From contig RDOA01000063.1 in NCBI GenBank assembly GCA_011364925.1, forward strand, positions 1-17,879: DNA of 17,879 bases. The letters run 5' to 3'. Shown piece after piece: positions 1 through 17,594 of the stretch. The stretch comes from Promethearchaeota archaeon. Its GTDB lineage: Archaea; Asgardarchaeota; Lokiarchaeia; Sigyniarchaeales; SOKP01. The notes under the pieces are model-generated. The model worked only from the letters and a program-made list of their open reading frames with translations, made no database searches and was not told the DNA's origin. The stretch's first letter is position 1. Each line of letters opens with the position of its first letter. The position numbers and the translations under genes were made by a program.

Positions 1-63
1 TCTTAAGTATTATCATCTTAACTTTATTTTGCCTTTAGAGTATTTACTAAACCTTCATACCCC

Positions 64-75
64 AAAGCTATAAAT
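64..75 (+). promoter_or_regulatory. Putative BRE/TATA box (AAAGCTATAAAT) for the PCNA-like gene; probably a leaderless transcript
   Basis: TATAAA at 69-74 lies about 25 nt before the ATG at 99; no SD visible. Confidence 0.45.
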
Positions 76-98
76 TTGGAATACGCCTCTTTAGATTT

Positions 99-1322
99 AT
101 GACTGTAATCGAAGATCAATATAATTGGAATAAATTGGCTGAAAGAGGTTCTGGTTACGAGGAAGTGCGAACTAAATTAAGCGCTTTAGAAGTCAACTGG
201 TACGGTCTACAGAAGGAACAAGTCTTTACCGAAGAAAACGAGTTCACGAAACGGTTTAAACAAGAAGTGAAAACAAAGGTAGACGGGATTTTCGAGTCGA
301 GCGCTCTACCCCAGAAAGACATCGCTTCGATGAAGAGAAAGTTTCACGCAAGAGTTCAAAAAAACTTAGAGTTAGCAGTGCTAAAAAAGGGATTAGCCCA
401 GATAACCTTCGATCAATACCCTTTATACAAGTTTTTCGAAGCCTTTAACACCTTCGTTGACGAAGTGGAGTTTAACGTGTCAAGAGATCAGATTAAGGTT
501 GTAATTAGCGACCCGTCCAGAATTGCCGTCATCAAAGTCGCGTTTAGCAACGATTCTTTTTTGTTTCTTAGGGAAGGAACGGTAAGCGTTAACATTGGGG
601 ATTTGAAGGAGATGCTTAGATGTCAGAGCAAAAGCGAATCTACGGTTACCCTTTTGTTCGCGGAAGAAGGGCTTGAAATGAGCATCACATCAGAGAAAAG
701 AAAGAGAACCATAGTACGAAAGCTTAACGCGATAGATTTCGAGCCCCAAGAGATGCCACTTGATACGCTAAACGCTATCAAGTATCCCTTTGAGTTTGAA
801 ATGACCAAAGACGATTATTTAGATCTCTTAGGTAATTCCGGGAGATATAGCGAAATCTTAGGCATAAAGACGACTCTTGAAAATGTTATCTTCTCGGAAG
901 CGAGCGATAAAGGGAGCGCAGAGATCGAGTACAAAAAAGACGATTTACCCAACCTAACATTTTTAGAAGACGTGTTAGATTTGGAATCGGAGATAAAAGA
1001 AGTCCAACTTGTAGATAAAGAAATTTTTGACGCAAAGCGATGCAAGGGATACTATTCACTTCCTTTTCTAAGACTGATCAAGGAGTTTTGCGCCGTATTG
1101 AATAGTAAAGATGCGATTAAGTTCTCTCTAAAGACTTCACACCCTTTGAAAGCTCAGATAACCTTCAAGAAGCTTACGAACGCAACCATCGTCTATTTCC
1201 TCGCCCCCAGAATGGACGAGGTAGATGAGGACGATTTCGAAGACGAAGAGGATCTTGAACCAACCGAAACAGAATATATGATTGAAAACGATTTTGAGTC
1301 ATTTGACAGCAAAGAAGAGTAA
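99..1322 (+). CDS. pcn: PCNA (DNA sliding clamp) family paralog with ~95-aa N-terminal extension and acidic C-terminal tail
   Basis: PCNA motifs from about residue 99: FVDEVEFNV, ISDPSRIAVI, VSVNIGDLKEML, KGYYSLPFL, HPLKAQI and the terminal YFLAPR. Confidence 0.85.
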   Translation: MTVIEDQYNWNKLAERGSGYEEVRTKLSALEVNWYGLQKEQVFTEENEFTKRFKQEVKTKVDGIFESSALPQKDIASMKRKFHARVQKNLELAVLKKGLAQITFDQYPLYKFFEAFNTFVDEVEFNVSRDQIKVVISDPSRIAVIKVAFSNDSFLFLREGTVSVNIGDLKEMLRCQSKSESTVTLLFAEEGLEMSITSEKRKRTIVRKLNAIDFEPQEMPLDTLNAIKYPFEFEMTKDDYLDLLGNSGRYSEILGIKTTLENVIFSEASDKGSAEIEYKKDDLPNLTFLEDVLDLESEIKEVQLVDKEIFDAKRCKGYYSLPFLRLIKEFCAVLNSKDAIKFSLKTSHPLKAQITFKKLTNATIVYFLAPRMDEVDEDDFEDEEDLEPTETEYMIENDFESFDSKEE

Positions 1323-2322: not shown

Positions 2323-2805
2323 TTAATCTGCTTCCGTGAGTAGTGTTACTTTCCCACCAGCAGATTCGATTTTCTCAATTGCTCGTTTTGAGGCTTTATT
2401 TACTGTAAGATTTACTTTTTTGTTAATTTCTCCGCGGCCTAGGATTTTTTGGATATTAATATCCTTAAGATTTATAGAGTAAGTATTTCCTGACTTCGTT
2501 GCGACATTTTTTACGGTGAGATCGTCAATTTTTGAATCTAAATCTTTTATATTAAGTGTATTTATATGGTAGATACGCCTGATGTCTTGGGGTCGTTTAA
2601 ATCCTCTTTTTCCTAAATCCCAATCAGGATCAGGAAATCCTAGTTCTTTTTGTTTGAGATAATAAGATTTCATACTCTTTTTCCATTGTGTAGTTTTTCC
2701 CCTACCAACTCTCTGACCTGTTTTTCTATGTTGTCCAACTTTACCGTACCCTTGAGTGCGAGTTCCTCTCTTTTTCCGAATCCTTTTTGGAAATTTTCTC
2801 GTTAT
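2323..2805 (-). CDS. rpl15: 50S ribosomal protein uL15 (160 aa), non-canonical ATA start
   Basis: Frame stays open 44 codons above the ORF-track ATG and encodes the uL15 N-terminus TRKFPKRIRKKRGTRTQGYGKVGQHRKTGQRVGRG; C-terminus KILGRG...ASKRAIEKIESAGGKV; SD AGGTGAT at 2811-2817. Confidence 0.93.
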   Translation of the reverse strand: MTRKFPKRIRKKRGTRTQGYGKVGQHRKTGQRVGRGKTTQWKKSMKSYYLKQKELGFPDPDWDLGKRGFKRPQDIRRIYHINTLNIKDLDSKIDDLTVKNVATKSGNTYSINLKDINIQKILGRGEINKKVNLTVNKASKRAIEKIESAGGKVTLLTEAD

Positions 2806-2823
2806 AATATATCACCTTTTAAT

Positions 2824-3360
2824 TTATATCATTTTATGAATCAGTTCATTAATAAACTGATCTATATAACCCAAAGTTCCTCCTTCATTATAGTGTTTTT
2901 TGATTGTTCCACGATGTCCTTTTCTAGGAGGATGCAACCGAAAAACTGGCTTAATTTTATACACATCCTGAGTCCTATATTTTACTTCTCCCGATAGTAA
3001 AGCTTTAGAGAACTCTTTTAAATTCTTGTATTTAGTGAGATTCTTGATATGTTCATCAGTGAGTGGTTTATTTCCCTCTAGTTTCCCTCTTGCTCTTAAC
3101 AGTCTTAACAGAGTTTTCTCATCGATTTCCCCATAAGCAATATAGTCTTTACATTTTTTTAGCATCCCCAAATAACTGACATCCCCCCATATAAGCACTC
3201 CATGATTCACTTTAAACATTCTTAACATTTTTAACGTGTCTGAAATTGAACGCTTCATCCCTGGAGCACCTCTTATACGAACTGCAAAATATAACGCTGG
3301 AGGTTTGGTTACTTTCATTTTTGATTTCTTTCTTATTAATACATTATTTTCTGCCATCAT
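2824..3360 (-). CDS. rpl30: 50S ribosomal protein uL30 (L7e-like long form)
   Basis: AVRIRG, TLKMLRM, KDYIAYGEID, FRLHPPRKG; SD-like GAGTGGTG ahead of ATG ATG (start 3360 or 3357). Confidence 0.95.
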   Translation of the reverse strand: MMAENNVLIRKKSKMKVTKPPALYFAVRIRGAPGMKRSISDTLKMLRMFKVNHGVLIWGDVSYLGMLKKCKDYIAYGEIDEKTLLRLLRARGKLEGNKPLTDEHIKNLTKYKNLKEFSKALLSGEVKYRTQDVYKIKPVFRLHPPRKGHRGTIKKHYNEGGTLGYIDQFINELIHKMI

Positions 3361-3376
3361 GTACACCACTCATTAT

Positions 3377-3991
3377 TTATAAGTTGAAATTATATTTGTG
3401 AGCATTTTTAAGAGCATTGAATGTAGCTTTTACCAGGTTTTCGCTGGTTCTAGAATCACCATAAGTGTTGCTCCATACATCTTCGATTCCAGCTAGTTTC
3501 AATACTTGTTTAACTTTATCAGCACAGGCTAATCCAACTCCTTGTGGAGCCGGGATTAAGCGAATTTTTACAGATCCACACTTTCCTTCTACTTTGAATG
3601 GAACGCTATGAGTGTGTCCACATCCACATTCTTTACTCCCACAGCCTCTAAGAACGGGAACAACAGAAAGTTTTGCTTTATCAATTGCTTTTCGTATAGC
3701 AGGACCTACTTCTCTTGATTTGGCTGATCCTACTCCAATAAAACCATCAGCTCCGACAATTACAACGGCTTTAAATCTAGAACGTTGACCACTTGCGGTC
3801 ATCTGTTGAACCATGTTAATTGTAACTACGCTTTCTTGAAGTTGTGGTATAAGAACATTGATGATTTCTGTTTCTTTGACTACAAGATTATTTGCGAATA
3901 TTTTATCTAAAGTAATCAGTCCCTGTTGGACTAATTCACCTAATCGTGTGGAAGGAATCCAACCTTCTTCAGAATTTCTTTGTCGACTCAT
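3377..3991 (-). CDS. rps5: 30S ribosomal protein uS5
   Basis: WIPSTRLG, GQRSRFKAVVIVG, RGCGSKECGC, LIPAPQGVGL. Confidence 0.97.
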   Translation of the reverse strand: MSRQRNSEEGWIPSTRLGELVQQGLITLDKIFANNLVVKETEIINVLIPQLQESVVTINMVQQMTASGQRSRFKAVVIVGADGFIGVGSAKSREVGPAIRKAIDKAKLSVVPVLRGCGSKECGCGHTHSVPFKVEGKCGSVKIRLIPAPQGVGLACADKVKQVLKLAGIEDVWSNTYGDSRTSENLVKATFNALKNAHKYNFNL

Positions 3992-4003
3992 ATAAATTCA
4001 CTT

Positions 4004-4597
4004 TTATGTGCTACTTCTTATTTTTTTGAATGTATTTGCAACTAATTGACTAATTTTTTGTGGATTAACATTATTCTTCTTGAGGTAACCAGAGAAAACT
4101 TTCTCATATTCCTCAGAATTCTCATTTTTTAAGAAGTTGGCATATTGCTCAATGTGAGAACCTTTTATCGTTTCTTCTATATTGTTTGGAAAAAAATCTT
4201 CGCTAAAGGGAATTTCTAATCCTGATTCGAGTAAACCCTTAAAAGCTGCAAGTACTCGATTTTTGTGATAGAAGATTCCTAAATCAAGAATTGCCTCTTC
4301 AATATTCTGTTTTTTTGCTCTTAATCCCGCTAGATAACCAGTGAGATATGCTGCGGGAATATTACCTGTATTAGCGTTCCATCCAAATTTTGAGACTAAT
4401 TCTTTAGAAAAAGCCGAAATTACCACTTCATCTCCAGCTGTTTTTGAACGAATAATTTGGACGATCATGTGATTATTTGAAGCCCTAATTACAGCTCTTA
4501 ATTTTTTGGATTTTAATAATTTCAATCTCCTATGATAGTTAGTTTTACCTTCTGCTCTCCTTCTGAATGGTTTTCTATATCTTGGTCCTTTCGCCAT
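4004..4597 (-). CDS. rpl18: 50S ribosomal protein uL18
   Basis: GPRYRKPFRRRAEGKTNY, NIPAAYLTGYLAG. Confidence 0.97.
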   Translation of the reverse strand: MAKGPRYRKPFRRRAEGKTNYHRRLKLLKSKKLRAVIRASNNHMIVQIIRSKTAGDEVVISAFSKELVSKFGWNANTGNIPAAYLTGYLAGLRAKKQNIEEAILDLGIFYHKNRVLAAFKGLLESGLEIPFSEDFFPNNIEETIKGSHIEQYANFLKNENSEEYEKVFSGYLKKNNVNPQKISQLVANTFKKIRSST

Positions 4598-4600
4598 TGA

Positions 4601-5059
4601 TTACCTACCTCTTCTAATATAATCTTTTTCTTTAATATACCGATTCATTTGAGCAACGCTATTGAACATTCCACCTTTTGCATTCTTATATAGTTTTCTA
4701 TAGGTAGCAGCTGTAATTAATTTCCTATTTCTTAATTTTTTAAGTTCTCGTCTTTGTGGGCGAATTCGATTCATCCACGCTTTTTTCTTTGGTAACCGTG
4801 CGTGTTTTGTCCCTTTTCGTTTTCCTAATCCCCTAGCTCTACCTTTTTTCTTCCGTTCATGTTGTAAGATTTTTCTATAGCTTGAATTTCCGTGTTTATA
4901 TTTTTTAATTATAATTCCTTCTTTTATTAAATTGCGGATATCCTCTCGAGTAATTGCCATTTTAATCTCATCAATTAAATATGGATCGAAATACACTCGA
5001 TTTTCCCCACATTTTAAGATTTCAGCTGCCATTCTTTTTTGGGCTTTTAGACTCATCAT
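4601..5059 (-). CDS. rpl19e: 50S ribosomal protein eL19
   Basis: LKAQKRMAAEILKCGENRVYFDP, GKRKGTKHAR, KAKGG-type motif NAKGGMF. Confidence 0.97.
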   Translation of the reverse strand: MMSLKAQKRMAAEILKCGENRVYFDPYLIDEIKMAITREDIRNLIKEGIIIKKYKHGNSSYRKILQHERKKKGRARGLGKRKGTKHARLPKKKAWMNRIRPQRRELKKLRNRKLITAATYRKLYKNAKGGMFNSVAQMNRYIKEKDYIRRGR

Positions 5060-5084
5060 GTATCACTTTATTAAGTAAACTTTT

Positions 5085-5549
5085 TTAATCTTCATCTTCG
5101 AATAATTCTTCATCTTCTAAATCCGTTACCGAGGATTCTAAAGCTGTTTCTAAATGCTCCATTTCACTTTGAGATATGCCTAAATTTAAAACTTTAAATC
5201 CTCTACTTTGAGCATAATCAATTACACTAATTCTTTTCTTTACCCCTAATCTTGTCGATACTTTAATCGCATGCTTTCTATTATTTAGGCCTTTCATATC
5301 GTCTATATTATGAACTCTTACCTCCTCATACCCCGACGGATGTAAGCCCCTTACTTTTTTGGGGCCTCTATAACCCACTGAAGGAGATTTAACTCCAGTT
5401 TTAGTTTTTTTCCTTGTTTGTGAATCAATCCCTCTTGCCTTTCTCCACGAGTCTTTTACGCGTTTATACCTCCAAGATTCGACACGTCTAAAAGAGGGAC
5501 GTCTTTTATTCATTCTTTTTCTGAGTTCAATCATTCTTTTTTGTTCCAT
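5085..5549 (-). CDS. rpl32e: 50S ribosomal protein eL32 with acidic C-terminal tail
   Basis: WRKARGIDS, VGYRGPKKVRGLHPSG. Confidence 0.97.
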   Translation of the reverse strand: MEQKRMIELRKRMNKRRPSFRRVESWRYKRVKDSWRKARGIDSQTRKKTKTGVKSPSVGYRGPKKVRGLHPSGYEEVRVHNIDDMKGLNNRKHAIKVSTRLGVKKRISVIDYAQSRGFKVLNLGISQSEMEHLETALESSVTDLEDEELFEDED

Positions 5550-5564
5550 TTTAATAACCTCAAC

Positions 5565-6143
5565 TTATTTGACTTCCCAAGCAATTTCTTCTCCGTTCTG
5601 AATTCTATAGAGAAATACACCGTCTTGAAAAACTCGAGGATCTTTTTTTCTAATTCTGCACGCTTTTCTTAAATTCGCAGCTGTTTGTCCAAGTGTTTCT
5701 TTATCTGGTCCAATTAAAAAGACATCATCTCCTTCAACTTTCACTTTTACATTATCTAAATAATTAGTGACTCGTGGAGCTCTTTCACCAAGAAAGTTTA
5801 CGACATGTATCTCTTTTTTATCAGGAATCACTTCGACTGTGCAAGGAAAATGACTGTAACATACTTTACATACATATTTATAGTTTGTCTGAACACCAAT
5901 TATTAAATTTCTAATTAGATTTATAACAGTATTAATTAAAGCAAGTGTTCCACTTTTTGGGAAGTGGGTTGTAAAGATCATTTTATTTCCTTCAATTGTA
6001 ACTGATATACCCCTCACATGAGAAAAATCTTTTGTGATTTTTCCATTTGGACCGTTTATAGTAATGTGATGATTTTCATCAAGTGTAACTTTAATTCCTT
6101 CCGGAATTTCCATTTCTTCCTTAAAATATGCCACTTTTACCAT
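5565..6143 (-). CDS. rpl6: 50S ribosomal protein uL6
   Basis: YSHFP, NFLGERAPR, KDPRVFQDG. Confidence 0.97.
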   Translation of the reverse strand: MVKVAYFKEEMEIPEGIKVTLDENHHITINGPNGKITKDFSHVRGISVTIEGNKMIFTTHFPKSGTLALINTVINLIRNLIIGVQTNYKYVCKVCYSHFPCTVEVIPDKKEIHVVNFLGERAPRVTNYLDNVKVKVEGDDVFLIGPDKETLGQTAANLRKACRIRKKDPRVFQDGVFLYRIQNGEEIAWEVK

Positions 6144-6185
6144 TTATCATTACCTTTTGTTATTTTAATCTAGTTGATAGTTGAT

Positions 6186-6569
6186 TTAGAAGATGTAGCA
6201 AAGTGTCATGCCTCCAATATGCTTTTCCTCCGCCTCTTTGAGAGTCATAATACCTTGATTTGTCGTAAGTACAATTATTCCTAAACCAGGCGCGGGAAGC
6301 AGCCTTCTTTCAAGCGATTCAAATTGAGATTCATTATAATTAAGCCTCATTAAACCAGCACAATGGTTAATTTTTCCTAACAATGCAATTTTAAATTTTC
6401 CTTGCCTCCCATCGTCATATCTCTCAAATTCACCAATATAGGCGTATTGTTGGAAAATACGAAGCACCCTTTGGTTTAATTTTGAAGCTGGACTGACAAT
6501 CACTTCTTTTTTCCTTGCTTTTTCTGCGTTTTTAAGGTCATTACACATATCAGCCAGTGTATTTGTTAT
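6186..6569 (-). CDS. rps8: 30S ribosomal protein uS8 (127 aa), probable non-canonical ATA start
   Basis: Conserved N-terminal helix TNTLADMCNDLKNAE extends above the ORF-track ATG to ATA at 6567-6569; GYIGEFE-type motif, DDGRQG, TTNQGIMT; SD GAGGTG at 6576-6581. Confidence 0.93.
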   Translation of the reverse strand: MTNTLADMCNDLKNAEKARKKEVIVSPASKLNQRVLRIFQQYAYIGEFERYDDGRQGKFKIALLGKINHCAGLMRLNYNESQFESLERRLLPAPGLGIIVLTTNQGIMTLKEAEEKHIGGMTLCYIF

Positions 6570-6597
6570 TTTTTACACCTCATTTCTAATTTCAATA

Positions 6598-6744
6598 TTA
6601 ATCGTATCTATAAAATCCAATTTCTTTTCCTATTTCGTAGAAACAACGACGACATATATATAAACCATATCTCCTTATTAAACCTCTATGAGTATGACAT
6701 CGTCTACATTCTCTTTGACCTTTACCAATTTTACCTTGAGGCAT
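6598..6744 (-). CDS. rps14: 30S ribosomal protein uS14, zinc-binding type (48 aa; absent from the ORF track)
   Basis: Manual translation MPQGKIGKGQRECRRCHTHRGLIRRYGLYICRRCFYEIGKEIGFYRYD; CxxC...CxxC; expected position between uL5 and uS8. Confidence 0.97.
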   Translation of the reverse strand: MPQGKIGKGQRECRRCHTHRGLIRRYGLYICRRCFYEIGKEIGFYRYD

Positions 6745-6769
6745 TCTTATCAATCTTCTTGCTAAATAA

Positions 6770-7375
6770 TTATGCGAAATCTAAATCTAATTTATCTACT
6801 ATTTTAATTCCAAAATTTTTTTTTAAAAAATATTGAGCTTCTAAACGAGAAACATAATGATGTTTTGGTACTTTCGCTCGACCTTTTCTTCGATATTTTA
6901 CTCGCATTCCTGGTCTTACAATTCGACCAACTACATCTAAACCCCAAATACCAATTATATTATCATATTCTATTCCCGGAATGGTAATATGTTCTGTAAT
7001 TCCAAAACCAAAATTTCCGTAATTATCAAAGCTTTTTCTTAATATTCTATCATTATTTACAACAAAAAGTCTTTTTAATAAGTTCTCAGCTTCTTTATTG
7101 CGAATGGTAACCATTGTGCCAATTGGGCGTCCTATTCTTAAGTTAAATTCTTTGACATTTTTCTTAGAAAGAGTCTTTATGGCAGGCTTGCCGGAAATGG
7201 TTTGTAACACTGTAGCGGCTCGTTCTAATTCTTCTCCTCCAGCACCAACTCCAATATTAAGAACCACTTTTTCTAAATAAGGTTTCTTCATTGGATTTTT
7301 CCACATTTCTTCAAAGATTTTCTCTTGTTCCTTAGAAGATTTTTTCATCATTTCTCTTACTGCTTTAGCTGACAT
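6770..7375 (-). CDS. rpl5: 50S ribosomal protein uL5
   Basis: NPMKKPYLEKVVLNIGVG, GNFGFGITEHI, RPGMRVKYR. Confidence 0.97.
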   Translation of the reverse strand: MSAKAVREMMKKSSKEQEKIFEEMWKNPMKKPYLEKVVLNIGVGAGGEELERAATVLQTISGKPAIKTLSKKNVKEFNLRIGRPIGTMVTIRNKEAENLLKRLFVVNNDRILRKSFDNYGNFGFGITEHITIPGIEYDNIIGIWGLDVVGRIVRPGMRVKYRRKGRAKVPKHHYVSRLEAQYFLKKNFGIKIVDKLDLDFA

Positions 7376-7396
7376 AATAAACTTCCTCTCTTAGTC

Positions 7397-8149
7397 TTAA
7401 TCTAATTTTGGTATATTGATTTCAGATTGGTCTTCACCTATGATAAATGTATAATCATAGAGGGTTTCTGTATGATCTGAATTATGTTGTATAGATACTG
7501 TACTTGCCTTCGGACCAAATCTCTTTAAAATGTTTATAATTTTTCCCACTTGCCCAATATTTTTCCCAGACATGATAATTGCTAAATTCCCTTCCTTAAA
7601 CTTTAATACTTTTAGTATTTCTTGTTCAGGAACAGAAATTTTTAAAACATCCATTCTTTTGTAAATATCCTCTTTAGGTTTTGTTGGATCCTTAACTCGA
7701 ACTAACACATTCCTTCCATCATGTAAGTTTAATTGAATATTTCCTCCCTTGATTGTGGATTTCTTAGTAATTCTGCACAATTTAAAAGTACTCTCTGCTT
7801 CCGGTATTTCATGCAAAATTAATCCATGATGTGAATCAGGAAGAATTCGATAATGTTTATTTAGTTTTTCTATACTTAGCACATCCATCAAACCTACCGG
7901 GTACGTTTCATCTCTTACGATCTTTCCATCTACCTTAAAATTTCCTAATCCAATTAGTTTTTTCGCTTCTCTATGATTATCTACTATGTGTAATAAGTCT
8001 CTAACAATATGCAATAATGGTAAACAGAATCTATTTGGATGAGGTCCAGGTGATGGTTTTAAGAAAAATTTACCGTGTTTTCTCCTAATTTGTAAATATT
8101 TGGGAGTGTTAAATCTTTTTAAAGTTCTTGTGCCCCCATGTCTTGTCAT
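7397..8149 (-). CDS. rps4e: 30S ribosomal protein eS4
   Basis: PSPGPH, VDGKIVRD, PVGLMDV, QLNLHDGRN. Confidence 0.97.
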   Translation of the reverse strand: MTRHGGTRTLKRFNTPKYLQIRRKHGKFFLKPSPGPHPNRFCLPLLHIVRDLLHIVDNHREAKKLIGLGNFKVDGKIVRDETYPVGLMDVLSIEKLNKHYRILPDSHHGLILHEIPEAESTFKLCRITKKSTIKGGNIQLNLHDGRNVLVRVKDPTKPKEDIYKRMDVLKISVPEQEILKVLKFKEGNLAIIMSGKNIGQVGKIINILKRFGPKASTVSIQHNSDHTETLYDYTFIIGEDQSEINIPKLD

Positions 8150-8581
8150 CTATTTCTCTTCCTCCTCTTTTTGCTTTTTTGGTGCTTTTAATTCATCTCC
8201 AGTAAAACCAAAGACCGCTTTACGGTCGATTATACTTGCTCTCCAAGGATCCATTTTCTTTTCCTTTGAGAATTTTGTTATTATTAATTTTGATACATGA
8301 ATCGCAGGGTGAAATTGAGTACCATCAGCTTTATCAAAAGTCGCTTCTTTAATTTTTACTCTTTGATTTCTAGTTAATTCGATAACTTCACCTTCAAAAT
8401 CTTTAAACTCACCCTGAGTAATTCGTACTTCATCACCTACTTTTATAGGGAGTGTTTTTATCCCATATTCTTCTGTTACAAAATCTGCAACTCTTGCAGT
8501 TAATAACTTTGAATGTTGATGATTCTTACTCTGATACAATGCCTTCCTCTGTCTCCGAGGATGTTTTGATTTCACTTTCAT
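8150..8581 (-). CDS. rpl24: 50S ribosomal protein uL24
   Basis: SKHPRRQRK, KOW motif GDEVRITQGEFK. Confidence 0.95.
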   Translation of the reverse strand: MKVKSKHPRRQRKALYQSKNHQHSKLLTARVADFVTEEYGIKTLPIKVGDEVRITQGEFKDFEGEVIELTRNQRVKIKEATFDKADGTQFHPAIHVSKLIITKFSKEKKMDPWRASIIDRKAVFGFTGDELKAPKKQKEEEEK

Positions 8582-8600
8582 TTTTTAACTCCTTTTTTAT

Positions 8601-9026
8601 TTAAATAATTAATGAAGAAATGGATGCTAAACGTGGAAATAATTCAGCAGCTTCTCTAGCTATAGGTCCACGAATTTCTGTAGCCTTAGGGTCTCCCTCT
8701 TTAGTTATTATCACACCAGCATTATCTTCAAAACACAATCTTGTTCCATCTAGTCGTCTATAAATCATTTTTTGCCGAACAATAACCGCTTTTACAATGT
8801 TTCCACGTAAATCTGGACGACCTTTTTTAATAGTTACCGAACAAACAGATCCTACGGATGCTTTTGGTAATCTTCTTAATCGCGTTTTAGAGTGATCGAC
8901 ATTTATAATCTGTGCTATTTTAGCACCTGAATTATCTGTAATAAAGATTTTTGAGCCGTTTTGAACCCCGTAACTAGTTCTTGGTTTAATCTGTTTTTTT
9001 CGTCCTAGCTTTCTTCTCGTTCCCAT
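8601..9026 (-). CDS. rpl14: 50S ribosomal protein uL14
   Basis: DNSGAK, AVIVRQ, FEDNAGVI, GPIAREAA. Confidence 0.97.
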   Translation of the reverse strand: MGTRRKLGRKKQIKPRTSYGVQNGSKIFITDNSGAKIAQIINVDHSKTRLRRLPKASVGSVCSVTIKKGRPDLRGNIVKAVIVRQKMIYRRLDGTRLCFEDNAGVIITKEGDPKATEIRGPIAREAAELFPRLASISSLII

Positions 9027-9377
9027 CTAATCTGCCCCCGTTCTTATTTTATCTAATACAATGAAAGCTTTTGTTTTAGAAAGTTTTCTACTTTCTCCTA
9101 CTCGTACTAAATCTCCTATCTCAATTACATGATTAAGACATTCTGGTAGATGACATACGAGTCTCGAATTACGTCTTTCATACCTCTGATATTTTTTAAC
9201 GAATTGAACATAGTCTTGCCTAATTACTACAGTATTCTTTGATTTCTTGTTAACTACTACTCCTTTTGTAATTTTTCCTCTGATTCGGGACGTCCCATGA
9301 AAAGGACAATCTTTATCGCTACATTCGCGAGCAGTAGGAGGATTTACTCCCGGAATACCAATATTTCTAACGCTCAT
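9027..9377 (-). CDS. rps17: 30S ribosomal protein uS17
   Basis: RNIGIPGV, CSDKDCPFHG, KYQRYERR, LSKTKAF. Confidence 0.97.
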   Translation of the reverse strand: MSVRNIGIPGVNPPTARECSDKDCPFHGTSRIRGKITKGVVVNKKSKNTVVIRQDYVQFVKKYQRYERRNSRLVCHLPECLNHVIEIGDLVRVGESRKLSKTKAFIVLDKIRTGAD

Positions 9378-9387
9378 TTTACTTCCT

Positions 9388-9675
9388 TTACCACTTCTTT
9401 TTTTTTAAATTTCTTAACCTATTTTCAGGATTACCTAGAATTTTTGTTCCATTTACTTCTAGCGTTCCATTATTTAGTTTAAATCTGAAATCATAATCTT
9501 TTTTAATAAAATTCTTTCTCACGTTATCTTTTTCTGTTATTAACATGTTTTGAGTATCATCAATAACCACGCCAACATCCGAAAATTCGATGTCCTTAGA
9601 TTTCGATTTAAGTCTGGCTTTTACTTCAAAACCTATCAAATCGTGGTATATTAGATACTTTGGACTAATCATCAT
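9388..9675 (-). CDS. rnp1: Ribonuclease P protein subunit aRpp29 (Rnp1)
   Basis: HDLIGFEV, GVVIDDTQNML, NGTKILGNPENRL; canonical position upstream of uS17. Confidence 0.92.
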   Translation of the reverse strand: MMISPKYLIYHDLIGFEVKARLKSKSKDIEFSDVGVVIDDTQNMLITEKDNVRKNFIKKDYDFRFKLNNGTLEVNGTKILGNPENRLRNLKKKKW

Positions 9676-9683
9676 GTCATCAT

Positions 9684-9881
9684 CTATTTCGTTTCATTCT
9701 TTACAGTGAGAATTCTTGCAATTTGTTTTCTTATTAGCTTCGCCTTAGCTGGATTATCTGAGACTCCGCCACCAGTTTGTTGACTATATAACATCATTAA
9801 TTCTTCTCTCAATGCTAATAAATTCCTCTCTCTTTCTCTTTCGTCCATTTCTCGAACTTTTTTTGCCGTAATTATATCCAT
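9684..9881 (-). CDS. rpl29: 50S ribosomal protein uL29
   Basis: GGVSDNPAKAKLIRKQIARILTV. Confidence 0.95.
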   Translation of the reverse strand: MDIITAKKVREMDERERERNLLALREELMMLYSQQTGGGVSDNPAKAKLIRKQIARILTVKNETK

Positions 9882-9913
9882 TTTTTTCCCTTATATTTAT
9901 TTGATTTTATTTT

Positions 9914-10702
9914 TTATTCCTCAGTCTTTTCATCCGTTTCTTTTTCTGAATCTAAATAAAGTTCAGATGTATCATCTTCTTCAACTTCATCAAATAACTC
10001 TTTTTCTACAGCGGTTAAATCCCTTTCTTCCTCAATAACTTCGTAGTCTTTTTCAGCTTTTGTTTTCGTTAATTCAGATAACTTTTTTGTTTGAATTTTT
10101 GCTAAAGACGCATCGTCAATTTTGACCGTGTCTCCCATTCTCGTATCTGCATGCATAATCTTAACAATGATTCCTAGAGTACCAGATTTCTGAATACATT
10201 GAGCTACACCTCTGTCTACACCTTCCTGGGCAGGTTGACCTGATTTTGACATTGTGCCCGCTCGAAATACCGTTGTTCTGGCTCTTTGGCTCGTGACTTT
10301 ACCTGAAACGATAATCTCTGTACCTCTGGCACCAGAATCCATTATTTTTCTTAAGATGTAATATCCCGCTCTTCTGTAATGCCGTCCTCGATCTAATGAA
10401 TATGCTAACCGTTCTGCCATGATTTGTGCGTTCAAATCGGGATTAGGAACCTCTTCAACTTCGATCTGGGGCATTTCCAGTCCAAATCGATCGTGGAGGA
10501 CATCTGTAATCTCTTGAATCCGTTTTCCAGCCTTCCCAATTACAAGTCCTGGCCTACTTGTTTTCAAAGTGATCCTTACTCCAAGTGGAGTCTTCTGAAT
10601 ATCTACCCCTGCAAATCCTGCCCGAACAAGCTCTGATCTCAAGTATTCATTTATCTGCATCAATTTGATACCTTGCTCAATGAAATGTTTCGCTAAAGGC
10701 AT
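9914..10702 (-). CDS. rps3: 30S ribosomal protein uS3 with acidic C-terminal tail
   Basis: KH motif RPGLVIGKAGKRI, LNAQIMAE, GARGTEIIVSGK. Confidence 0.97.
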   Translation of the reverse strand: MPLAKHFIEQGIKLMQINEYLRSELVRAGFAGVDIQKTPLGVRITLKTSRPGLVIGKAGKRIQEITDVLHDRFGLEMPQIEVEEVPNPDLNAQIMAERLAYSLDRGRHYRRAGYYILRKIMDSGARGTEIIVSGKVTSQRARTTVFRAGTMSKSGQPAQEGVDRGVAQCIQKSGTLGIIVKIMHADTRMGDTVKIDDASLAKIQTKKLSELTKTKAEKDYEVIEEERDLTAVEKELFDEVEEDDTSELYLDSEKETDEKTEE

Positions 10703-15044: not shown

Positions 15045-16166
15045 TTAAGAATCACCTAAAAAGTAAGCGAATATAGAACCGTTATCATGGCAGCTAATAA
15101 GAAGTTCTAACTCAGAATCGTATTTTAGGTCATTAACACAAGATTTTTTATCAATTTTAACAAGAATATTACCAGATCCCGATTCTATAATTAAAATATT
15201 ACCTTTAGTAGTTCCCACAATAATATATTTCTTCGTAAAAACTTCGATCGGAATATATGTTTCCACATTAACATTTTTAATTTCCCAAATTTTCTCGAAA
15301 TCTGAATTTAGGCAAATAAATTGTGAAGTAAATTCATAATTCTCGATTTTGATATTATCATCGAAATAATCGAATGAGTAAGTGCTTACTAATAGAAATA
15401 GCTTCCCATCATGAAGAAATGATGAACATTTCCAAACAATGTCTTCAAATTGAAGAGTTTTTAAATCTTCGTGTGTGTTTTTATTAAATAAATGAAATTT
15501 TTTATCATCTCCTCCACAAGCTATCAAGATTTCGTTGCCTCTTTTGATATATGAAACGCATCGAACTTTATTGTTAAATCGTTTAAACCAATTTAATTCG
15601 CCCGTTTTTCCCTTAAAACTACGGATAGTTCCATCGTTTCCACAAGCAATTATCTCTAAAGCTAATGGGTTATCTAAATCTTGCCAAATAATAGCATCAC
15701 CGATTCCTTCTTCAAATAGTTGCCCCCATATTAAAGAACCGTCAATTGAGTTCAAGCAACGTATACTTTTATCTATTGAATATGCTATAATTTCTTTAGT
15801 GCCATCAAAATTAACATCTGCTTGTAAAAACCCACTGATAGAGGTTCCAAACTGATGCGACCAAAGAGGAGTTAATTCATAAGACTTAGAACATTTGAAT
15901 GTTCTTAATAATCCATCTAAACCTGCTAACACAACTTCATTTTTATCGTCATGATCAATGTCAAAGATTTTAACTTGCCAAAGAGAGGAATTTTCTGTGA
16001 TTTCTAGTTCATTTATTTTTTTACCAGTTAACGATAATATGAGCAATTTCCCAGAATTAGTGAAGCCAAGAATTTCGTTGTGACCATTGTTATTGAGATC
16101 TCCTATTTCAATCCCAAGTATTGACTCGTTGGAATGGAAATCCCATCGTTGTTCGATAGTATTCAT
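15045..16166 (-). CDS. Beta-propeller protein (FG-GAP/WD40/PQQ-like repeats), no signal peptide
   Basis: Repeats GDLNNNGHNEI, DIDHDDKNEV, DVNFDGTKEI; ~42-aa periodicity with G.L.W blade ends. Confidence 0.75.
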   Translation of the reverse strand: MNTIEQRWDFHSNESILGIEIGDLNNNGHNEILGFTNSGKLLILSLTGKKINELEITENSSLWQVKIFDIDHDDKNEVVLAGLDGLLRTFKCSKSYELTPLWSHQFGTSISGFLQADVNFDGTKEIIAYSIDKSIRCLNSIDGSLIWGQLFEEGIGDAIIWQDLDNPLALEIIACGNDGTIRSFKGKTGELNWFKRFNNKVRCVSYIKRGNEILIACGGDDKKFHLFNKNTHEDLKTLQFEDIVWKCSSFLHDGKLFLLVSTYSFDYFDDNIKIENYEFTSQFICLNSDFEKIWEIKNVNVETYIPIEVFTKKYIIVGTTKGNILIIESGSGNILVKIDKKSCVNDLKYDSELELLISCHDNGSIFAYFLGDS

Positions 16167-16307
16167 TGTTTCATCCTCTTTGCTTTCACAAATTTGTTAA
16201 GAGTTAATTTATGAAACAGAAATTATTTTTAATAAAATATAATTATAAATAAAAATAGATGTAATTTCTAATTATTGATCAAAACGTATAATAAAAAGTG
16301 ATAAAAG

Positions 16308-16883: not shown

Positions 16884-16942
16884 TATAATGATCATTTGTG
16901 CAAACAAAGATTAAAAATAACAAAACAACAAAGGTATATAAA

Positions 16943-17140
16943 ATGTCATTTAAAATCGAAGTTGATATGGACGCTTGTAGTGGTTGCGGTACATGCTATG
17001 AAGTATGCCCAAGTGAATGCTTTGGAGAACCAGAAGGTGGAAAGGTTAATATTATTGAGGAAAACAGGGATGACTGCGTAGGATGTAGGGCTTGTGAAAC
17101 CCAATGTGAAGAAGAAGCTATTACCATCACAGAGGAGTAG
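16943..17140 (+). CDS. fdx: 2[4Fe-4S] ferredoxin, copy 1 (65 aa)
   Basis: CSGCGTCYEVCP and CVGCRACETQC; start set at ATG 16943 by alignment to copy 2. Confidence 0.93.
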   Translation: MSFKIEVDMDACSGCGTCYEVCPSECFGEPEGGKVNIIEENRDDCVGCRACETQCEEEAITITEE

Positions 17141-17335: not shown

Positions 17336-17396
17336 AATTGTTCTATGATCTAAAAATTAAATAATTTTGAAATAGAAAAGTATAGGAGTTAAGGAA

Positions 17397-17594
17397 ATGA
17401 GTTTTAAAATTAAACTAGACTTAGATAATTGTACTGGTTGTGGAACTTGCTACGAAGTTTGCCCAAGTGAATGTTTTGGCGAACCAGAAGGCGGAAAAGT
17501 AAATGTGATCGAAGAAAATAGAGATGATTGTGTCGGTTGCAGAGCATGTGAAACCCAGTGCCCTGAGGAAGTAATTGAAATTATCGAGGAATAG
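17397..17594 (+). CDS. fdx: 2[4Fe-4S] ferredoxin, copy 2 (65 aa)
   Basis: CTGCGTCYEVCP and CVGCRACETQCP; SD-like AGGAG upstream. Confidence 0.95.
   Translation: MSFKIKLDLDNCTGCGTCYEVCPSECFGEPEGGKVNVIEENRDDCVGCRACETQCPEEVIEIIEE

Follow-up and report, generated by a model that had tools for sequence, protein, structure and literature searches.

Two genes of the ribosomal-protein cluster of a Promethearchaeota archaeon, rps8 (protein uS8) and rpl15 (protein uL15), very probably begin at ATA rather than ATG, as judged from their reading frames and orthologs. The probable explanation is a relaxed initiation guided by strong Shine-Dalgarno (SD) sequences, in which ATA, ATT and ATC (AUH hereafter) would form a fourth class of start codons next to the canonical ATG, GTG and TTG, with the initiation factor aIF1 feeding back on its own synthesis and with uS8 and uL15 as passengers. 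The window analysed here is an entire contig of 17.9 kb (17,879 nucleotides, RDOA01000063.1, labelled G000:C75) from a source genome (G000) of 3.9 Mb and 33% G+C. The nearest named relatives, according to uL15, are mostly labelled Promethearchaeota or Promethearchaeia, i.e. Lokiarchaeia. The block from uS19 to uL15 lies on the minus strand with all 19 genes present. An in-frame ATG was found at the expected place in 17 of them, the exceptions being rps8 and rpl15. SD matches were judged against the genome's own 16S 3' tail, read from contig C86; among the 19 genes, SD duplexes as strong as those of rps8 and rpl15 were only found in eS4 (-10.1 kcal/mol).

The coding sequence of rps8 (6186..6569, minus strand) gives 127 amino acids from the ATA at 6567..6569. 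An in-frame stop is located two codons upstream, followed by one Lys codon, the ATA and ACA, and no in-frame ATG, GTG or TTG occurs between this stop and codon 8, which is the next ATG. The SD sequence GAGGTG (6576..6581, minus strand) represents a 6-nt match to the 16S tail with a spacing of 6 and a duplex of -9.5 kcal/mol. The match to solved archaeal uS8 begins at residue 3-4. A contig of the public run X2 covering positions 6345-6726 shows 0 differences. An out-of-frame mini-ORF of five codons (6566..6583, minus strand) was also read in the sequence; its stop overlaps the ATA, it has no SD of its own, it is in frame in the relative G016 through one extra A, and it is probably incidental.

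The coding sequence of rpl15 (2323..2805, minus strand) gives 160 amino acids from the ATA at 2803..2805. An in-frame TGA is found three codons upstream, inside the SD sequence AGGTGAT (2811..2817, minus strand; 7-nt match, spacing of 7 from the end of GGTG, duplex of -9.9 kcal/mol). The ATA is followed by ACG, and the next ATG is codon 45. In the alignment with the solved uL15 9e6q_AL, residue 2 of one protein is already paired with residue 2 of the other. Among the same-strain contigs listed over uL15, the best displays one unlocated difference in 323 nt and therefore does not decide independently between ATA and ATT. Both SD spacings correspond to the modal spacing of the genome, and in both genes the near-cognate codon occupies the position of the ATG, TTG or GTG of relatives. 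An earlier, sequence-only reading of the window had pointed out the two ATA codons behind strong SD sequences among 17 ATG starts, and had anticipated that automated annotation truncates both proteins; the former was confirmed by reading frames and ortholog positions, and the latter in public databases, where only a 120-aa form of uS8 (from Met8) and a 116-aa form of uL15 are present for this contig and the full forms are absent. A threonine codon after the ATA, also emphasized there, is present in both genes of the window and is not conserved, as 4 out of 10 uS8 genes with ATA have Ala instead. Since the second residues of AUH genes vary as well (Ser being the commonest), a conserved Thr at codon 2 was ruled out as a signal.

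Across the genome, SD matches of at least 5 nt were collected near the 5' ends of open reading frames without an available ATG, GTG or TTG, and the in-frame triplet was read by spacing. With a spacing of 6-8, the triplet was AUH at 42 of 70 SD sites (p ~2e-21 against 12%). The other spacing bins ranged from 5/71 to 12/61, and the rate in coding sequences is 9.5%. Three control motifs gave 0/29, 5/35 and 4/27, and off-frame triplets 3/128. The same peak was obtained in the relatives G008 (18/34) and G017 (9/15); the 360 kb read in a complete genome from a different family contained five sites, two of them AUH, too few to be informative. Once the background was subtracted, ~58 AUH genes (of at least 100 codons) remained, which is a lower bound and corresponds to ~2% of all genes and ~9% of the SD-led genes at that spacing. 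GTG starts at the same spacing number 45, so the AUH class is about as common as GTG. The spectrum of start codons (ATA 18, ATT 17, ATC 4, CTG 2, ACG 2) fits a genome of 33% G+C, and the predominance of ATA and ATT is what would be expected of A+T-biased mutation from ATG. The strength of the SD and the codon vary together: the share of AUH climbs with SD length (4, 11, 14 and 23%), and the SD duplex reaches -7.9 kcal/mol at AUH sites versus -6.6 kcal/mol at ATG sites (p=2e-5). These counts rely on anchored and SD-spacing tests, which were used in preference to a first, loose ortholog screen dominated by antisense shadows and conserved leaders.

Pairs of orthologs in which AUH faces ATG or TTG confirmed cases in unrelated genes. 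At least four ribosomal proteins of G000 have no canonical start (uS8, uL15, uS4 and eS28). The uS4 gene (G000:C112, 12334-12843, minus strand) starts with ATC behind a 7-nt SD; that of eS28 (G000:C54, minus strand) lacks canonical codons over a stretch of 52 codons, and its G017 ortholog has TTG. A TFB-like open reading frame (G000:C70, minus strand) displays no canonical codon for 37 codons. At the genome-wide rate, 0.86 AUH starts are expected among the 19 cluster genes, and the probability of at least two is 0.21 given the SD class of each gene, or 0.05 at a flat 2%; the two observed are not clearly above chance. The initiator tRNA of G000, whose gene is probably split by an intron, was not found using ARAGORN or a motif search.

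The starts of both genes were also read in relatives. In 25 genomes of the same genus, where the same codon position serves throughout, uS8 starts with ATA in 10, TTG in 10, ATG in 4 and GTG in 1. A further 35 Asgard uS8 genes are all canonical, which brings ATA to 10/60 and canonical codons to 50/60. On a ribosomal-protein tree, the ATA-type uS8 genomes form one clade of 12, including two members with ATG (G002 and G004). The rps8 SD is identical in all 10 ATA genomes and weaker in these two (-6.7 and -3.3 kcal/mol). For uL15, ATA is restricted within the genus to G000, ATT is found in the three nearest relatives and ATG in the other 20. The wider set of 80 loci contains 24 ATT (two with a nearby GTG), 54 ATG, one TTG and one unreadable start; counted over the Asgard loci, ATT or ATA is present in 25/80 and a canonical codon in 55/80. 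The uL15 AUH starts fall in two distinct clades that also include ATG members, and require 7 changes on the 86-tip tree versus at least 16 with shuffled labels. The mean SD duplex is -8.8 kcal/mol in the ATT orthologs and -7.6 kcal/mol in the ATG orthologs. According to the tree, the history of the uL15 start is most simply ATG to ATT to ATA, and the two starts of the window did not arise by two independent G-to-A changes, the events considered in the sequence-only reading. Both starts are AUH in 4 of 24 same-genus genomes (G000, G013, G014 and G024), uS8 only in six genomes, and uL15 only in G144. As a separate observation, five relatives (G003, G004, G015, G023 and G150) carry a hairpin insert near rps8 codons 45-48, at two different positions and with a bulge-helix-bulge geometry (29 nt where measured); the rps8 of the window has no insert.

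The gene of aIF1 was located on contig C86 (G000:C86, ~10208-10537) as the single PF01253 match above the cut-off, and its loss from G000 is ruled out. Its absence between uL29 and rnp1, which the sequence-only reading had remarked, holds for the window: 11 nt separate the uL29 stop (9684) from the rnp1 ATG (9672) in this junction (9672..9686, minus strand), and the gene is merely relocated. An in-frame TGA stands four codons ahead of its ATT start, and no canonical codon follows until codon 41. The protein is intact, as it matches the solved aIF1 4mo0 over residues 5-103 with the zinc knuckle and the basic loop kept. In all 30 genomes of the family that were read, covering six genera, aIF1 starts with AUH (27 ATT, 2 ATA and 1 ATC); in 28 of them the zinc knuckle is reached without any canonical codon, and four paralogs are also AUH. 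No ATG or TTG was found at this position in 34 family sequences. In sister families it aligns with ATA, TTG, GTG or ATG, and among about 50 genomes of other Asgard families, ~12 have ATA or CTG without a canonical codon, spanning five families, and ~10 have GTG. The SD of aIF1 is weak, with a longer spacing than in the bulk of the AUH class. Of 24 same-genus assemblies, 7 yielded no aIF1 (G004, G010, G012, G017, G018, G023 and G024; 82-100% complete), five of which were searched again with no match. Assembly gaps near the 16S gene are the likely reason, as the aIF1 and 16S genes are ~10 kb apart and the latter often fails to assemble.

Two further observations were made on initiation factors. 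An out-of-frame GTG mini-ORF of five codons (L001 1413-1431, G000:C86) has a stop overlapping the aIF1 ATT; it occurs throughout the genus, its middle codons being variable. The P-loop codons of the aIF2-gamma gene (G000:C53, ~19121-19149, minus strand) are interrupted by a 29-nt insert with the geometry of a bulge-helix-bulge (a helix of 4 bp and two bulges of 3 nt). Without it, the reading frame is continuous and encodes the Gly-Lys-Thr motif, and the G008 ortholog is uninterrupted. From its sequence, the insert in this core initiation factor gene is probably an mRNA intron that the tRNA-splicing endonuclease would cut.

The mechanism proposed here would operate as follows. A strong SD would pair with the 16S tail and bring the AUH codon, 6-8 nt further downstream, into the P site; there the initiator tRNA would pair with two of the three bases and start the protein with Met. 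The long SD duplex would offset the third-position mismatch, by analogy with the AUA and AUU starts of Staphylococcus aureus. Under A+T-biased mutation, genes would drift between a strong SD with a weak codon and a weaker SD with ATG; turnover of start codons between relatives was observed. The genes rps8 and rpl15 would be ordinary members of the class, responding to aIF1 only as passengers and as a side effect. Like IF3 and eIF1, aIF1 would restrain its own production and thereby keep the stringency permissive. Because aIF1 itself has a conserved ATT/ATA/ATC start, start-codon stringency is probably under aIF1 feedback in this lineage, as the analogy with these factors suggests. The link between AUA starts and initiation fidelity drawn in the sequence-only reading is partly supported in this sense, though uS8 and uL15 are not singled out by it.

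That reading had taken the AUA starts of uS8 and uL15 as selected sensors, one per ribosomal subunit, which would be rate-limiting under aIF1/aIF2 stringency. Both genes do combine a very strong SD with a weak codon, the frequent non-ATG starts of uS8 and the inheritance of AUH in clades for uL15 fit selection, and aIF1 carries an AUH start of its own. The survey of Asgard genomes it had called for did not show a conserved ATA for either gene, and most uS8 and uL15 genes are canonical; the two starts are decoupled, and ATG members occur within the AUH clades of both. The genome-wide scan it had suggested showed scattered starts of a class that is not rare, to which two of 19 genes correspond, and uS4, eS28 and unrelated genes have the same feature. 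A conserved sensor pair is largely refuted, and the idea is considered improbable. Translational coupling was judged just as doubtful. Ribosomes finishing uS14, uL30 or the five-codon mini-ORF would be handed to the AUA by termination-reinitiation, which both genes might allow as they lie inside a long operon with the upstream stop 18 nt (uL15) or ~28 nt (uS8) away, the stop of the mini-ORF even overlapping the uS8 ATA. However, such an overlap arises whenever ATA is followed by a purine, the mini-ORF lacks an SD and changes frame in G016, and throughout the genome the AUH peak is tied to SD and spacing. Coupling could add to SD-guided relaxed initiation and not replace it.

An artefact or another start is very improbable. 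Both sites are found beside A/T runs and gene callers picked the downstream ATG codons, but the codons are common to 10 (uS8) and 25 (uL15) genomes, and this conservation among orthologs refutes it. Sequencing error at both ATA codons was ruled out by the codons shared with relatives and, for uS8, by the zero-difference X2 contig. A start at the downstream ATG was ruled out by the 44 skipped residues of uL15, which align with solved structures. A frameshift from an upstream out-of-frame ATG was discarded as well, as G008 and G011 do not share the A-run and there is consequently no conserved slippery site. A more serious alternative, though still rather unlikely, is relaxed initiation without feedback, where the ribosome, the initiator tRNA or aIF1 would be intrinsically permissive and aIF1 a scarce factor with a constitutively weak start. 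The genome-wide AUH class is accounted for equally well, and the weak SD of aIF1, its longer spacing and its ATG start in many other Asgard families are in favour of it. A weak start could also be reached by TTG or by loss of the SD, yet the 34 family sequences have neither ATG nor TTG; uS8 and uL15 switch codons repeatedly and the family aIF1 does not, and the functional elements of the factor (zinc knuckle and basic loop) are kept.

Several points weigh against SD-guided relaxed initiation with aIF1 feedback and neutral passengers. In E. coli, non-canonical starts yield 0.01-2% of AUG (10.1101/063800). As uS8 and uL15 must be stoichiometric, the efficiency of AUH here must far exceed these values, and an E. 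coli-like level would be too low for a ribosomal protein unless the lineage is far more permissive. Of 28 same-genus genomes, 22 start uS8 with a codon other than ATG, whereas the neighbours uL6, uS5 and eL32 almost always have ATG, and uL15 moved to ATT in two separate clades; together this hints at a gene-specific pressure. There may also be a mild enrichment of AUH among ribosomal proteins, at least four of which lack a canonical start. Finally, aIF1 starts with ATG in ~20 of the 50 genomes of other Asgard families, so that the feedback is not universal. A stronger version, in which aIF1-centred feedback actively tunes a regulon of about 60 or more AUH genes including uS8, uL15, uS4 and eS28, is possible but held with low confidence. 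If true, ribosome supply would be coupled to initiation fidelity, foreshadowing the eukaryotic eIF1 control of near-cognate starts.

In comparison with known systems, aIF1 would work like infC, and the other AUH genes like the SD-directed near-cognate starts of S. aureus. In bacteria, infC (encoding IF3) has an AUU or AUA start on which its translational autocontrol depends in the case of AUU (Butler 1987, as cited in PMC4705826), and the infC of S. aureus starts at AUA (PMC13009471). Sulfolobus aIF1 discriminates against AUU in vitro (PMC4705826), and the aIF1 gene of the family studied here likewise starts at a codon that aIF1 rejects (ATT in 27 of 30 genomes, ATA or ATC in the rest). The differences are that IF3 and aIF1 are not homologous, that the aIF1 feedback is putative, and that bacteria have a handful of such genes versus at least ~58 here, including essential ribosomal proteins; the autoregulated gene would be that of aIF1, and neither rps8 nor rpl15. 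The autoregulation of eIF1/SUI1 through an AUG in poor context (Ivanov 2010, as cited in PMC6237735) concerns a homologous factor (PF01253) with a handicapped start; the handicap of eIF1 is the Kozak context during scanning, whereas for aIF1 it would be the codon itself behind an SD-like element. In S. aureus, AUA and AUU starts behind an extended SD (ccpN, cvfC1) reach ~10-30% of the AUG output (PMC13009471), and a strong SD would similarly direct a third-position near-cognate start here. Few conserved genes are concerned in S. aureus, in contrast to a genome-wide class as frequent as GTG and changing between close relatives. The uS8 gene of the window lies in a cluster homologous to the spc operon of E. 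coli. S8 represses that operon by binding its mRNA at the L5 start and not via the start codon, a control which is not needed for the reading of AUH.

Accounts of archaeal initiation list AUG, GUG and UUG as start codons, AUU being rejected by aIF1. This picture would be revised if a close relative of eukaryotes started ~9-14% of its SD-led genes, stoichiometric ribosomal proteins included, with AUH. The conserved AUU of aIF1 makes fidelity-factor feedback of the IF3 and eIF1 type directly testable in archaea. The idea of a two-protein sensor itself adds little. Gene callers truncate AUH proteins, with consequences for marker-gene alignments and proteomics of Asgard archaea; the public uL15 is missing 44 of its 160 residues. 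Ribosome profiling of Haloferax found near-cognate codons among putative alternative sites, which were set aside (PMC7261190). No report of an AUH start class in Asgard or other archaea, or of archaeal aIF1 autoregulation, was found in a literature search outside of which most subscription journals fell. No RNA data are listed for the region.

Additional features were observed in the window and in the genome. The ribosomal block is truncated on either side (2323 and 11820). Past uL15 there is no secY and a convergent ECF-type membrane gene is found instead; ahead of uS19, a cupin and a PfkB kinase replace uL3-uL4-uL23-uL2. Long acidic extensions are present on uS19, uS3 and eL32. At the contig end, an open reading frame (51-1322, plus strand) of different-looking composition contains a PCNA-like domain (PF00705, residues 125-229) with an unexplained N-terminal part of ~120 aa and an acidic tail. 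A 383-aa beta-propeller protein (15045-16196, minus strand) gave weak matches to BBS2/BBS7, ITFG2 and FG-GAP and is possibly a eukaryote-like propeller. Two near-identical small 4Fe-4S ferredoxin open reading frames are arranged in tandem at 16892-17140 and 17376-17594 (plus strand). Elsewhere in the genome, an MvhD/VhuD-like gene (G000:C112, minus strand, ORF offset 35646) displays an in-frame TGA which is kept in G017 and probably encodes selenocysteine.

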